From the NCBI RefSeq assembly GCF_017348835.2, contig NZ_CP072315.1: a stretch of DNA of 64,000 bases, one strand, 5' to 3'. The DNA comes from Escherichia coli (lineage in GTDB: Bacteria; Pseudomonadota; Gammaproteobacteria; Enterobacterales; Enterobacteriaceae). Position 1 is the first letter of the stretch, and each line of letters begins with the position of its first letter. Positions 3,001-9,000 of the stretch are shown one piece after another. Position numbers: made by a program.

Positions 3001-6000
3001 CGCCTCACCTTTGTTCAGGCCGGCATGCACGCGGCGGCGCAGTTCAACACTTTGCAGCCAGTCCAGGATGAACAGCGTGCGCTCGATCCGGCCCAGCTCG
3101 CGCAGGGCCACGGCCAGTCCGTTCTGGCGCGGGTAGCTGCCGAGCTTGCGCAGCATCAGCGAGGCGGTGACGGTGCCCTGCTTGATCGAGCTGGCCAGGC
3201 GCAGGATGTCGTCCCAGTGGGCACGCACGTGCTTGATGTTCAGGGTGCCGCCGATCAGCGGGCGCAACGTCGGGTAGGCTTGCACGCCCTGCGGCACGTA
3301 CAGCTTGGTTTCGCCGAGGTCGCGGATGCGCGGCGCGAAGCGGAAGCCTAGCAGGTGCATCAGGGCAAAGACGTGATCGGTGAAGCCGGCCGTGTCGGTG
3401 TAGGGGTCTGACGCTCAGTGGAACGAAAACTCACGTTAAGCAACGTTTTCTGCCTCTGACGCCTCTTTTAATGGTCTCAGATGTCCTTTGGTCACCAGTT
3501 CTGCCAGCGTGAAGGAATAATGGCCGAGCATATTGATATGTCCGTGGCAAAGCGGGGAGAGGCGTGCGATATCTTCATCATTCAGTGTTTCACCCTGCGC
3601 CCGGAGATGATCCAGGGCTGCCTGCATATAAATAGTGTTCCATAACACGACGGCGTTAGTGACCAGCCCCAGTGTGCCCAGTTGATCTTCCTGACCGTCG
3701 GTATATCGTTTTCTTATCTCACCTTTTTGACCGTGACAGATGGCTCTGGCAACGGCATGGCGACTTTCTCCCCGATTAAGCTGGGTCAGAATGCGCCGGC
3801 GGTAATCTTCATCATCAATATAATTAAGCAGATACAGCGTTTTGTTGATGCGCCCCACTTCAATGATTGCCTGAGTCAGTCCGGAAGGACGTTCACTTTT
3901 CAGCAATGAACGGACCAGCACTGAAACCTGTACTTTGCCCAGCTTCAGGGAGCCAGCGGTCCGGATCATTTCGTCCCACTGAAGGACTATTTTTCGGGGA
4001 TCTGATTGCCCTCTGGCAATATCATTCAGCACGCCATAGTCGGCATCATGGTCCATTCGCCAGAAAACCGAAGCACCGGCATCAGCCAGGCGTGGAGAAA
4101 ACTGGTATCCCAGCAGCCAGAAAAGGCCAAAGACAAGTTCGCTGGCACCTGCTGTATCGGTCATAATTTCGGTTGGATTCAGCCCGGTCTCCTGTTCCAG
4201 AAGACCTTCCAGCACAAAGATAGAGTCCCTCAGCGTCCCCGGTATAACGATGCCATGAAAGCCGGAATACTGATCGGACACAAAGTTGTACCAGGTGATC
4301 CCTCTGTTATTACCAAAGTATTTGCGGTTCGGTCCGGCATTGATTGTTCTGACTGGCGTAACAAAGCGCATTCCATCTGCAGATGCCACTTCTCCTCCAC
4401 CCCATATCTGTGCCAGTGGCAGCGTTGCCTGAAAATCAACCAGTCTGGCATTAGCGCTGGTGATAGTTTCAGCCCGCAGATAGTTCGCTTTTGTCCAGTT
4501 CAGCCGGTGTCGGGTCAGTGCAGGAACATTTGATCTGATCAGTGGTTCCAGACCGATATTGCAGGCTTCAGCCATCAGCACGGCGCTGATGCTGACGGGC
4601 AGATCATCAACTCTGGCACTGGCTTCACTAGCATGGAAAAACTCATCAGCAAATCCGGTATGGGCGTTAATTTCGAGCAGCAACTCCGTTAAATCCACCG
4701 GAGGGAGTAGATCACTGATCATTTTGCTCAGTCGTTTCGGCACTGTTGCAAATAGTCGGTGGTGATAAACTTATCATCCCCTTTTGCTGATGGAGCTGCA
4801 CATGAACCCATTCAAAGGCCGGCATTTTCAGCGTGACATCATTCTGTGGGCCGTACGCTGGTACTGCAAATACGGCATCAGTTACCGTGAGCTGCAGGAG
4901 ATGCTGGCTGAACGCGGAGTGAATGTCGATCACTCCACGATTTACCGCTGGGTTCAGCGTTATGCGCCTGAAATGGAAAAACGGCTGCGCTGGTACTGGC
5001 GTAACCCTTCCGATCTTTGCCCGTGGCACATGGATGAAACCTACGTGAAGGTCAATGGCCGCTGGGCGTATCTGTACCGGGCCGTCGACAGCCGGGGCCG
5101 CACTGTCGATTTTTATCTCTCCTCCCGTCGTAACAGCAAAGCTGCATACCGGTTTCTGGGTAAAATCCTCAACAACGTGAAGAAGTGGCAGATCCCACGA
5201 TCCTCAACACGGATAAAGCGCCCGCCTATGGTCGCGCGCTTGCTCTGCTCAAACGCGAAGGCCGGTGCCCGTCTGACGTTGAACACCGACAGATTAAGTA
5301 CCGGAACAACGTGATTGAATGCGATCATGGCAAACTGAAACGGATAATCAACGCCACGCTGGGATTTAAATCCATGAAGACGGCTTACGCCACCATCAAA
5401 GGTATTGAGGTGATGCGTGCACTACGCAAAGGCCAGGCCTCAGCATTTTATTATGGTGATCCCCTGGGCGAAATGCGCCTGGTAAGCAGAGTTTTTGAAA
5501 TGTAAGGCCTTTGAATAAGACAAAAGGCTGCCTCATCGCTAACTTTGCAACAGTGCCGCCCCAGCAGCATCTCCAGCTGTGAACGCTGTTCGGCTGACGG
5601 TATCAGTGCCAGTTTGTTCCACAGGCGCAACGTCGCCTTTTCCCTTACCTCTGAAATCAACCGGGTCAGCGTAGTGGCTCCGGGGAGAATAATAGTCTAT
5701 CCCGGCATTGCCAGTCGGGGATATTAAAAAGAGTATAGGTTTTTATTGCGATAAACTAGGTTTCACTTTGGTTCACCATGAAGATGGATTCGCAGTTCTA
5801 ATGTGTAATGAGGTTCGGATTCATCTATGGGAGGCAAGTGATGAAGGCTGGCGCTCTCGTAGTAATGATTCACCGGTTTGTACAGGTGCGGAGTCGTTTA
5901 TTGCTGGTACTGCTAGTTGCCGCATTGAAGTAGAGGGAATTGATGAATTATATCAACATATTAAGCCTTTGGGCATTTTGCACCCCAATACATCATTAAA

Positions 6001-9000
6001 AGATCAGTGGTGGGATGAACGAGACTTTGCAGTAATTGATCCCGACAACAATTTGATTAGCTTTTTTCAACAAATAAAAAGCTAAAATCTATTATTAATC
6101 TGTTCAGCAATCGGGCGCGATTGCTGAATAAAAGATACGAGAGACCTCTCTTGTATCTTTTTTATTTTGAGTGGTTTTGTCCGTTACACTAGAAAACCGA
6201 AAGACAATAAAAATTTTATTCTTGCTGAGTCTGGCTTTCGGTAAGCTAGACAAAACGGACAAAATAAAAATCTAAATATGCTTGAACAACTTGTAACTTA
6301 AATTCATAACTGTATTTTGCCATAAAAAATGACCTCCCATAAGTTAGATTTTTGGTCTAACTTATGGGGGTCAGTTCATTCTACACTTGGGCTGCATGTT
6401 TTGATTAATTATCTAATATCTCCGGATCTCCTGTAAAGGAATATAAAACTGCCTGCATGTTTTTCAAATAAAATACGGTGAATTTCCCATCATCAGCGCT
6501 ATACCAATCTCTCAAATGCGGATTTGCTTCAAGCATTGCTTCCCTTGCTTCCACGGTATCATCAATTACGGCTTCGCCGGTGAGCCGAATCCATTTTCCT
6601 TTTGCCATACCTGAGACTTCCACCTTTGAATTTGCCAATAACTGCTGATAAACTTTTTTCTGATTGGTTGTACCAAGATAGACCTTGCCATTCCTCTCCA
6701 TGGCTGCATTAAACGGTCTGACCCTTGGCTGGTCTCCTTCAACGGTTGCAAAATAAAAAGTTTTTGCTTCATTTAAAAAATCAACAACTTGACTCATCCT
6801 TTTTTACCTCCATAAATAAATTTTTCTTTACTTTTCTTTGACCTAAATTCCACGTGCATTTTTTATTAGCTTAAAAGAACACTATTTCACGAAGAATTTA
6901 AACTGATACTCCCACATTGTAACATTATTTACCACCACCTTTCAATCTTTTTCAATAAATTATTGATTGCAACTTTTGAGTAAAGATACTTATTAAACCC
7001 TGCAAGTTATCCACAGAGCAACACTCGATTTTCAAGATGATATCTTTATTACACCAGACATTTTTCATACACTTCCTTGGGCACTGTTGCAAAGTTAGCG
7101 ATGAGGCAGCCTTTTGTCTTATTCAAAGGCCTTACATTTCAAAAACTCTGCTTACCAGGCGCATTTCGCCCAGGGGATCACCATAATAAAATGCTGAGGC
7201 CTGGCCTTTGCGTAGTGCACGCATCACCTCAATACCTTTGATGGTGGCGTAAGCCGTCTTCATGGATTTAAATCCCAGCGTGGCGTTGATTATCCGTTTC
7301 AGTTTGCCATGATCGCATTCAATCACGTTGTTCCGGTACTTAATCTGTCGGTGTTCAACGTCAGACGGGCACCGGCCTTCGCGTTTGAGCAGAGCAAGCG
7401 CGCGACCATAGGCGGGCGCTTTATCCGTGTTGATGAATCGTGGGATCTGCCACTTCTTCACGTTGTTGAGGATTTTACCCAGAAACCGGTATGCAGCTTT
7501 GCTGTTACGACGGGAGGAGAGATAAAAATCGACAGTGCGGCCCCGGCTGTCGACGGCCCGGTACAGATACGCCCAGCGGCCATTGACCTTCACGTAGGTT
7601 TCATCCATGTGCCACGGGCAAAGATCGGAAGGGTTACGCCAGTACCAGCGCAGCCGTTTTTCCATTTCAGGCGCATAACGCTGAACCCAGCGGTAAATCG
7701 TGGAGTGATCGACATTCACTCCGCGTTCAGCCAGCATCTCCTGCAGCTCACGGTAACTGATGCCGTATTTGCAGTACCAGCGTACGGCCCACAGAATGAT
7801 GTCACGCTGAAAATGCCGGCCTTTGAATGGGTTCATGTGCAGCTCCATCAGCAAAAGGGGATGATAAGTTTATCACCACCGACTATTTGCAACAGTGCCC
7901 AAACGCGAAGGCCGGTGCCCGTCTGACGTTGAACACCGACAGATTAAGTACCGGAACAACGTGATTGAATGCGATCATGGCAAACTGAAACGGATAATCG
8001 GCGCCACGCTGGGATTTAAATCCATGAAGACGGCTTACGCCACCATCAAAGGTATTGAGGTGATGCGTGCACTACGCAAAGGCCAGGCCTCAGCATTTTA
8101 TTATGGTGATCCCCTGGGCGAAATGCGCCTGGTAAGCAGAGTTTTTGAAATGTAAGGCCTTTGAATAAGACAAAAGGCTGCCTCATCGCTAACTTTGCAA
8201 CAGTGCCGGCTGAAGGCCGAGCAAGCCTGACAGGCCCGAAAAGCCCGGCACGGGCGTCGGCGGCGATGACGGCGGCGGCATTATCCAGGGTTGATGATGG
8301 AAGTGGAGGATATCGACAACCTCTCGCGCAACCAAGACATCGCGGTCGGACTGCAAGTGATCTTGAAGCCACGGGCCCGTCCCACCCCGACATGGACCTC
8401 GATGCCCGAACGGACGTTAGATTTCGAGTTCTAGGCGTTCTGCGATGAAGGTTGGATCCCAGCCGGGATTGAAAGTGTCGACGTGGGTGAATCCGAGCCG
8501 CTCGTATAGGCCACGCAGGTTCGGGTGGCAGTCGAGCCGCAGCTTGGCGCACCCCTGCGTTCGCGCGGCATGGCGGCAAGCCTCGATCAGCGCGGAGCTG
8601 ACACCCCGGCCCGCATGTGTCCGTCGCACCGCGAGCTTGTGCAGATATGCGGCCTCCCCCTTGAGGGCGTCGGGCCAGAACTCGGGATCCTCGGCCGACA
8701 AGGTGCAACAGCCGACGATGCCGTCGCTGCAACTCGCGACTAGGAGCTCGGATCTCAGGACGAAGGTCTCCGCGAATGTCCGGTCGATCCGCGCGACGTC
8801 CCAGGCGGGCGTTCCCTTGGCGGACATCCACGCCGCAGCGTCGTGCATCAGCCGCACAACCTCGTCGATATCACCCGAGCAGGCGACCCGAACGTTCGGA
8901 GGCTCCTCGCTGTCCATTCGCTCCCCTGGCGCGGTATGAACCGCCGCCTCATAGTGCAGTTTGATCCTGACGAGCCCAGCATGTCTGCGCCCACCTTCGC

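Follow-up and report, generated by a model that had tools for sequence, protein, structure and literature searches.

The bleO gene (synonym blmS) in a 64,000-nucleotide stretch of Escherichia coli DNA (contig NZ_CP072315.1, hereafter the window) lies between two inverted copies of IS26 and abuts a fragment of Tn2. We asked how much of the gene is left, how it came to lie in this setting, and whether it can be expected to confer bleomycin resistance.

The window carries a 5′-truncated copy of pUB110 bleO

Positions 5694-6271 of the window (+ strand, 578 bp), beginning AGTCTATCCC..., aligned without gaps and with 100% identity to the Staphylococcus aureus plasmid pUB110 (NC_001384), and 5′ of 5694 the DNA bears no relation to pUB110. 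The reference bleO of pUB110 starts with GTG and encodes a 134-aa product (VRMLQSIPALPVG...). The NCBIfam bleO model NF000027 matched the window frame with 307.6 bits, above its curated HMM cut-off of 275 bits, over profile positions 6-134 of 134. Codons 1-5 of bleO (profile positions 1-5) are thus gone, whereas codons 6-134 and the stop codon (6083-6085, itself pUB110 sequence) are retained as Delta-bleO at 5696-6085 (+ strand), a frame delimited by the NF000027 match, the PGAP CDS, and the ORF list. Its product is matched by the Pfam models Glyoxalase and Ble-like_N. The native GTG, its Shine-Dalgarno sequence, the promoter, and all further upstream pUB110 sequence are missing from the window. 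The window copy is neither a full-length 134-aa CDS with the GTG reference start, as in NF000027-type BleO, nor preceded by the ribosome-binding site and driving promoter of a pUB110-type BleO.

A prior sequence-only reading had described bleO as lacking its native start and joined to a 137-bp scrap of Tn2 tnpA, and both the pUB110 identity that begins at 5694 and the source of the scrap (see below) bear this out. That reading counted three missing codons; five of the 134-aa reference are missing, and three is obtained only by counting from an internal ATG. Re-inspection brought up neither a canonical ATG nor a promoter, and the TTG at 5708 lies 9 codons downstream of the reference start, so the loss of the native start and the truncation stand.

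The two copies are the same over codons 6-134, the stop codon, and 186 bp downstream including the terminator (100% identity) and differ upstream, where native pUB110 bleO follows aadD and has AAAGGGGA ahead of its GTG, whereas the window has antisense Tn2 tnpA instead. The native pUB110 hairpins 3′ of bleO (6101-6175, + strand; terminator scan and folding, -18.4 and -17.0 kcal/mol) are identical to those of pUB110, in agreement with the earlier statement that the terminator is intact. The second of them (6130-6161), followed by the T-run TTTTTTATTTT, scores as an intrinsic-terminator-like site. Between the pUB110 piece and the adjoining Enterococcus-type segment are 16 bp (6272-6287), and the alignments to pUB110, pF88_2, and pE211-2 all stop short of them.

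A single joint connects the interior of Tn2 tnpA with bleO codon 6

The 137 bp upstream of bleO (5558-5694) are an internal piece of Tn2 tnpA on the - strand, antisense to bleO, with codons for IILPGATTLTRLISEV...QLEMLLG. When positions 5558-5720 were compared with the window by BLAST, 137 of 137 bases of 5558-5694 were identical to 45052-45188, which sits within the tnpA ORF of another Tn2 copy; this ORF translates to a Tn3-family TnpA. The Tn2 and pUB110 parents have a single base in common at the joint, the A at 5694. Chance is no concern because the identities are exact over 137 and 578 bases. One joint with one shared base linked an internal tnpA point to bleO codon 6. Recombination at the 6-bp GAGAAT common to Tn2 (GGGGAGAATAAT) and pUB110 (GTGAGAATGTT) was considered and rejected, as the ATG would survive such an event; the actual crossover lies 4-9 bases beyond GAGAAT, at the lone shared A.

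Directly 5′ of Delta-bleO and in its frame are the stop codons TAA TAG (5690-5695, + strand; read from the sequence, with a frame that agrees with the ORF list), and a translational fusion protein is therefore impossible. Read-through from IS26, offered previously as one way for bleO to be initiated, is possible as transcription; in the translational sense it is blocked by these codons.

A second Tn2 piece, Delta-Tn2 (3403-4738, - strand), comprises the 38-bp terminal inverted repeat (GGGGTCTGACGCTCAGTGG...) and the last 435 codons of tnpA, and belongs to a block near-identical to plasmid pOLA52. It is cut by the first IS26 (copy A), and the ORF at 3436-4743 (- strand) translates to the C-terminus of a Tn3-family TnpA. 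Copy A (4739-5557, + strand, 819 bp; delimited by its inverted repeats and by alignment with two intact 820-bp copies) has its tnp26 oriented like bleO. This tnp26 is frameshifted, with a T>C change as well as a 1-bp deletion, and its ORFs are split at 4784-5314 and 5185-5505. A simple insertion of copy A into Tn2 was rejected: its flanks, GTCGTTTC and GCCCCAGC, show no target duplication, and ~1.1 kb of tnpA separates the two Tn2 pieces, which are not contiguous.

Downstream of bleO, positions 6288-7079 (- strand) are an Enterococcus-type segment with 99.6% identity to Enterococcus faecium pE211-2, a type of segment described before (PMC5645526). It consists of a pyridoxamine 5′-phosphate oxidase (PNPOx) family gene (6405-6797; Pfam PNPOx_N), named orf63 or 'nimC' in papers, and an ISEnca1 remnant cut by the second IS26. 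This copy B (7080-7899, - strand; ORFs, inverted repeats, and alignment) is intact and inverted relative to copy A. 3′ of it are a partial IS26 and then sul1, qacEdelta1, and integron cassettes, which form a class 1 integron region.

The mosaic is a known and widespread structure

Window positions 3401-7899 differ from positions 41896-46395 of pOLA52 (NC_010378) at 4 positions in 4,500 bp, none of them within the Tn2 scrap and bleO (5558-6271). The order of elements and both IS26 boundaries are as in the window. The window is distinct in its frameshifted IS26 copy A, in SNPs at 6517 and 7052, and in what follows: in pOLA52 the fragment sits 5′ of Tn6010 (IS26-oqxA-oqxB-oqxR-IS26), whereas the window copy is not followed by Tn6010. 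A fragment composed of ΔTn2, IS26, blmS, orf63, and ΔISEnca1 has been reported on the upstream side of Tn6010, the oqxAB transposon (PMC5645526), and the same fragment is covered elsewhere (PMC6387526, PMC8193513, PMC5501952). These four papers do not mention the truncation and give no bleomycin MIC for the Delta-bleO allele. Among the IncHI2 and IncF plasmids that also carry the fragment are pHNSHP45-2, pHXY0908, and pHK0653. The mosaic, whose first sequence came from the oqxAB plasmid pOLA52, had a published description in 2008 and is nothing new.

PLSDB plasmids with the Tn2-bleO joint number at least 431, and among 5426 complete E. coli genomes 162 have it. The native 5′ end of bleO was present in 2 of the 177 bleO-positive E. 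coli genomes and in 56 of the 558 bleO-positive PLSDB plasmids; among the matches listed, most plasmids with the native end came from Gram-positive bacteria, and a few were small plasmids of E. coli. The same joint was present in essentially every enterobacterial bleO copy examined. An evenly spaced sample of 881 matching plasmids held no Gram-positive plasmid spanning the joint between the pUB110 piece and the PNPOx segment (6271/6272); those that span it came from Enterobacterales only. On these comparisons, the Tn2-bleO joint is an old, widespread, published structure (pOLA52), not one peculiar to this molecule.

This distribution bears on whether the truncation could be an artefact of faulty sequencing or assembly, or a recent deletion private to this record, with bleO intact in the real molecule. 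The private 1-bp deletion in IS26 copy A does mean that one position or more in the record is unusual or wrong. Against this, pOLA52 and hundreds of plasmids that were sequenced independently share the identical joint at 100% identity; an artefact would be extraordinarily improbable, and the database comparison already refutes it. Across hundreds of plasmids the bleO reading frame is uninterrupted and matches pUB110 with 100% identity. Because the spread is so recent, such an intact frame neither supports nor opposes selection.

The segment could instead be retained for its PNPOx-family gene, or as a spacer between the inverted IS26 copies, with bleO irrelevant. That gene is intact, with sites that resemble promoters on the strand it occupies (6467-6440 and 6437-6408), and the block persists here although the window has no oqxB-sized ORF (~1050 aa), its sole ORF of at least 1000 aa being one of 1317 aa at 57636-61589. 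The four papers on the fragment show no PNPOx function in Enterobacterales, however, and persistence for ~20 years under IS26-driven spread requires no selection. We consider retention for these reasons very improbable as the explanation of the locus; it is compatible with, not opposed to, carriage of bleO as a silent passenger.

Expression signals upstream of Delta-bleO

PGAP places the start of the bleO CDS (WP_063102497.1) at an ATC at 5699, and the CDS maps to 5699-6085. NCBI annotates Delta-bleO as an ordinary CDS, not as a pseudogene, which counts against a silent reading. A Shine-Dalgarno-like GGGGAG (5682-5687, + strand; anti-SD duplex -8.1 kcal/mol), contributed by chance from the Tn2 scrap, lies 11 nt 5′ of this ATC. 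The longest classical ORF starts at the TTG at 5708 (5708-6085, 125 aa), which has no Shine-Dalgarno sequence (anti-SD duplex -1.7 kcal/mol) and falls within a predicted hairpin. The sequence-only reading had admitted as initiators only this TTG or read-through from IS26; the TTG is possible, but it is not the sole candidate, given ATC 5699 with its GGGGAG. A start at ATC 5699 costs the product 6 residues and leaves nearly the entire Pfam Glyoxalase domain, and a start at TTG 5708 costs it 9. ATC is a very weak initiator, in E. coli at ~1% or less of the level of ATG.

No sigma-70-like promoter was found by the promoter scan on the + strand between 5300 and 6067. The best relaxed candidate matched 8 of 12 positions with a 19-nt spacer, and transcription from it would begin at or beyond the candidate starts. 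Hybrid promoters, in which the end of IS26 supplies a -35 element (TTGCAA) and the flank supplies a -10 element, are known for aphA7 and blaSHV-2a. As in those genes, IS26 adjoins the upstream side of bleO, and an outward -35-like TTGCAA in its terminal repeat (5545-5550, + strand; read from the sequence) faces the gene. Unlike in those genes, no -10-like hexamer follows at 16-18 nt (GCATCT, CATCTC at 17 nt, and ATCTCC, with at most 2 of 6 matches to TATAAT), and the bleO start is ~140 nt further on. An IS26 hybrid promoter driving bleO was rejected for want of a -10 element. Between IS26 and bleO, the Tn2 scrap contains a short GC-rich hairpin followed by TTTTCC (5623-5638, + strand; folding -6.4 kcal/mol) that resembles a weak terminator. 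As tnp26 and bleO run in one direction without a strong terminator in between, some read-through RNA is likely.

Delta-bleO is probably a silent passenger

We think it likely that the locus is a 5′-truncated, promoterless remnant of pUB110 bleO in a fixed mosaic, with the history and silent function outlined here. The mosaic has the fixed order Delta-Tn2, IS26, 137-bp Tn2 scrap, Delta-bleO, PNPOx-family gene, Delta-ISEnca1, and IS26. A Gram-positive patch, made up of the pUB110-type piece and the Enterococcus segment, may have entered a Tn2 copy by illegitimate recombination, and IS26 insertions with adjacent deletions would then have trimmed both sides. Later travel of the block was presumably by IS26-mediated and homologous recombination. 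As it stands, bleO is without its promoter, Shine-Dalgarno sequence, and start codon and has gained no normal-strength substitute.

Ble proteins confer resistance by sequestration (PMC6804068). No useful bleomycin resistance would be expected from Delta-bleO, because stoichiometric sequestration needs abundant protein and the gene has no expression signals of normal strength. Most likely, then, Delta-bleO is a passenger of no practical value against bleomycin, and we infer that it is not expressed.

The BleO relatives BLMT of Tn5 and bleMBL, the latter next to blaNDM, belong to the same superfamily, have the sequestration mechanism in common with BleO, and are likewise passengers beside clinically selected genes, with sequence similarity to BleO that is marginal (E about 1e-3 to 1e-4). 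The BLMT and bleMBL genes are full length and co-transcribed with an upstream resistance gene.

Low but useful expression of Delta-bleO would have a different outcome: read-through from tnp26 or further upstream, with initiation at ATC 5699 or TTG 5708, would yield a protein that still binds bleomycin. The shared strand of tnp26 and bleO with only the weak hairpin between them, the GGGGAG before ATC 5699, and the PGAP call are all consistent with it, as are the shortened products, which match nearly the full Pfam Glyoxalase model, and the NF000027 score above cut-off. Several points weigh against it, beginning with the poor initiation at ATC, the TTG with no Shine-Dalgarno sequence inside a predicted hairpin, and the roughly stoichiometric amount of protein that sequestration demands. 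The frameshift in tnp26 leaves ~240 nt untranslated to the end of the IS, which should favor Rho-dependent polarity. In addition, the lost residues correspond in the alignment to the N-terminal arm swapped between subunits in solved Ble dimers; the N-terminus of BleO aligns residue by residue with those of the solved Sh ble, BLMA, and BLMT. Work by Dumas in 1994 and Kawano in 2000 reportedly addressed the role of this arm in the Sh ble and BLMA dimers. A single-sequence AlphaFold2 monomer of full-length BleO had a mean pLDDT of 35.8, too low to place the N-terminal arm, and a monomer model cannot test arm exchange, which has been described for a related protein (PMC3175449). Taken together, useful expression seems unlikely. 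Its more specific form, in which the chance GGGGAG and the in-frame ATC 5699 make a working start and IS26 read-through yields a shortened, bleomycin-sequestering BleO, strikes us as improbable. Were it true, hundreds of plasmids in enterobacteria would hold a working gene rebuilt by accident, and Ble proteins could do without their N-terminal arm.

Implications

Silent carriage of Delta-bleO, the reading that we favor, matters chiefly for curation. In AMRFinderPlus, in PGAP, and in many papers, the 'bleO' or 'blmS' of Enterobacterales is listed as a bleomycin-resistance gene, and essentially all such listed copies are one 5′-truncated, promoterless allele with an annotated ATC start. Tables that relate genotype to phenotype should treat enterobacterial bleO as unproven. 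Specialists in mobile resistance elements will find nothing surprising here. The fragment is a handy clonal marker of descent from a pOLA52-type oqxAB region, and it is a small record of Gram-positive DNA, from pUB110 and Enterococcus, captured by Gram-negative plasmids.

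Structure of the truncated bleO gene

The bleomycin-binding-protein gene in the window, a pUB110-type bleO (alias blmS), is truncated at its 5' end and joined to a 137-bp internal piece of Tn2 tnpA. This structure is real, and the sequence-only reading of it was essentially right, with correct coordinates and a correct description. The Tn2 piece (5558-5694) is assigned to tnpA, in antisense orientation, because 137/137 of its bases are the same as window positions 45052-45188, which lie within an ORF translating to a Tn3-family transposase (…MQHRIILPGATTLTRLISEVREKATLRLWNKLALIPSAEQRSQLEMLLGPTD…); the Tn2 reference was thus the second tnpA remnant, within 44092-46773. 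Positions 5694-6271 are 100% identical to Staphylococcus aureus plasmid pUB110 (NC_001384), and since the A at 5694 is common to both parents, the overlap at the joint is a single base.

In pUB110, bleO as annotated by AMRFinderPlus has a GTG start, with AAAGGGGA nine bases upstream, and encodes 134 aa (VRMLQSIPALPVGD…). The window frame matched positions 6-134 of the 134-position NCBIfam bleO model at 307.6 bits (cut-off, 275). Judged by this reference and match, ΔbleO (5696-6085) keeps codons 6-134 and the stop codon and has lost codons 1-5, together with the Shine-Dalgarno sequence and the whole upstream region of pUB110 bleO. The three missing codons counted earlier hold only from an internal ATG; against the 134-aa reference, five are missing. 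Directly before codon 6, Tn2-derived TAA TAG triplets stand in frame (5690-5695), making translational fusion from upstream impossible. The pUB110 hairpins 3' of ΔbleO are intact, among them a T-run hairpin at 6130-6161.

Assembly and distribution of the mosaic

ΔbleO and the Tn2 scrap are preceded by IS26 copy A (4739-5557, tnp26 on the plus strand, as placed by sequence, ORFs, and alignment), to the left of which lie the Tn2 end and last 435 tnpA codons (3403-4738). The two Tn2 pieces are ~1.1 kb apart within tnpA and the flanks of copy A are not a target duplication, which suggests that IS26 inserted and that an adjacent deletion then occurred. To the right, 16 bp (6272-6287, CTAAATATGCTTGAAC) match neither pUB110 nor the Enterococcus-type parent. 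Next comes a segment (6288-7079) that shares 99.6% identity with pE211-2, a plasmid of E. faecium. It holds a pyridoxamine 5'-phosphate oxidase (PNPOx) family gene on the minus strand (6405-6797; Pfam PNPOx_N) as well as a remnant that other records annotate as ISEnca1, and the segment is cut by the inverted IS26 copy B (7080-7899). In Gram-positive plasmids, pUB110-type sequence runs on beyond the equivalent of 6271. The 6271/6272 joint was spanned only by Enterobacterales plasmids, and by no Gram-positive plasmid, in an evenly spaced sample of 881 matching plasmids.

The mosaic is old, clonal, and already published, and is not peculiar to this molecule. Window positions 3401-7899 match 41896-46395 of pOLA52 (NC_010378), from swine-manure E. 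coli, apart from four differences. IS26 copy A holds two of these and the PNPOx gene a third, the fourth is at 7052, and 5558-6271 has none. The fragment is reported to be identical in pOLA52, pHXY0908, pHK0653, and pHNSHP45-2 (PMC5645526), and the module is also shown as blmS/nimC or bleO-NimC (PMC6387526, PMC8193513, PMC5501952). These published accounts do not remark on the truncation or report a bleomycin phenotype. The stretch from the IS26 end through the Tn2 scrap and bleO to downstream sequence occurs in at least 431 PLSDB plasmids, and the Tn2 scrap-bleO stretch in 162 of 5426 complete E. coli genomes. A bleO 5' sequence of any kind is present in 177 E. coli genomes, of which only two have the native start, both on small 6.8-kb plasmids; among the matches listed for these 177 genomes, the breakpoint base is the same in every truncated copy. 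A native 5' end was found in 56/558 PLSDB records; among the matches listed, most belong to staphylococci, enterococci, and bacilli, and small E. coli plasmids account for a few.

Several variants were observed nearby. Position 6517 is T in the window and G in pOLA52 and pE211-2 (which puts His in place of Pro94 of the PNPOx-family protein), and 7052, inside the ISEnca1 remnant, is C rather than the T of both plasmids; since NZ_CP034789, a plasmid of E. coli, shows 100% identity to the window over 6272-7075, the two SNPs mark a sub-lineage. Copy A is one base short, at 819 rather than 820 bp (GATTCATC to GATCCTC at 5201-5203, with a T>C substitution and the loss of 1 bp), and its tnp26 is frameshifted after about codon 146, giving ORFs 4784-5314 and 5185-5505. 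Because IS26 is intact at this position in both pOLA52 and Salmonella plasmid p2010112-144, the alteration is either a sequencing error or confined to the present molecule. Where pOLA52 has the oqxAB transposon, the window has an integron region beyond copy B (sul1/qacEdelta1/aadA16/dfrA27/arr-3/aac(6')-Ib-cr), preceded by a 308-bp 3' fragment of a second IS26 (7900-8207) head-on against copy B; one base is unlike the other copies (G at 8000, Gly for Asn in ORF 7895-8155). The second Tn2 tnpA remnant comprises the 5' part of the gene and is truncated by IS26 at 44091/44092. It adjoins a small cupin-like ORF (45459-45791) and, on the minus strand, an ORF for a CTX-M-type beta-lactamase (45838-46773); 44092-46773 is the usual IS26/ΔTn2/blaCTX-M arrangement. 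Promoter-like sites for the PNPOx gene lie on the minus strand at 6467-6440 and 6437-6408. Several papers name this gene nimC/nimA and list it under nitroimidazole resistance; an NCBIfam search of its protein matched no model, only general Pfam PNPOx models did, and the nim name seems to be a legacy of early automated annotation.

Expression and function of ΔbleO

A consensus scan of 5300-6067 found no sigma-70-like site on the plus strand. The best candidate in a relaxed scan of 5350-5715 (GGGTCA-N19-AATAAT, 8/12) has an over-long spacer, and its transcript would start at or past the candidate start codons. An IS26 hybrid promoter is likewise absent, as 16-18 nt after the outward -35 (TTGCAA, 5545-5550) stand GCATCT, CATCTC, and ATCTCC. 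Transcription reading out of IS26 is the only possible feed. A weak terminator-like hairpin, predicted by terminator scan and folding, lies in the Tn2 scrap (5623-5638), and because tnp26 of copy A is frameshifted, polarity on this read-through should be favored.

Trace translation of read-through RNA from ATC 5699 (codon 7) or TTG 5708 (codon 10) could give some protection. GGGGAG 11 nt 5' of the ATC pairs with the anti-Shine-Dalgarno sequence at -8.1 kcal/mol; in E. coli, initiation at ATC is very inefficient. The TTG lacks such complementarity (-1.7 kcal/mol) and falls within a predicted hairpin. A product started at the ATC would be 6 residues short, and one started at the TTG 9. Residues 2-56 of BleO line up one-to-one with the N-terminal residues of bleomycin-binding proteins of solved structure, namely Sh ble (1BYL, 1XRK), BLMA (1QTO, 1JIE), and BLMT (1ECS, 1EWJ), and the Pfam Glyoxalase model begins at about residue 4. 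In this protein family, Sh ble and BLMA included, the N-terminal strand is swapped between the two subunits. The same exchange is described for the related EhpR (PMC3175449). A single-sequence AlphaFold model had a pLDDT of 35.8, too low to be informative. Resistance works by drug sequestration (PMC6804068) and therefore requires abundant protein. We consider such trace expression, the main alternative, unlikely; judged from these signals, ΔbleO is probably a passenger that is unexpressed or negligibly expressed.

The RefSeq PGAP annotation begins WP_063102497.1 (128 aa) at ATC 5699. In NZ_CP033094 and NZ_CP019054 (3642-4028 in each, equivalent to window 5699-6085), PGAP labels the truncated gene an ordinary 'bleomycin binding protein' with start codon ATC, and AMRFinderPlus calls it bleO with '100% identity'. 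Routine resistance-gene tables therefore give no sign of the truncation. In practice, 'bleO' calls in Enterobacterales are this truncated allele, with ATC as its annotated start.
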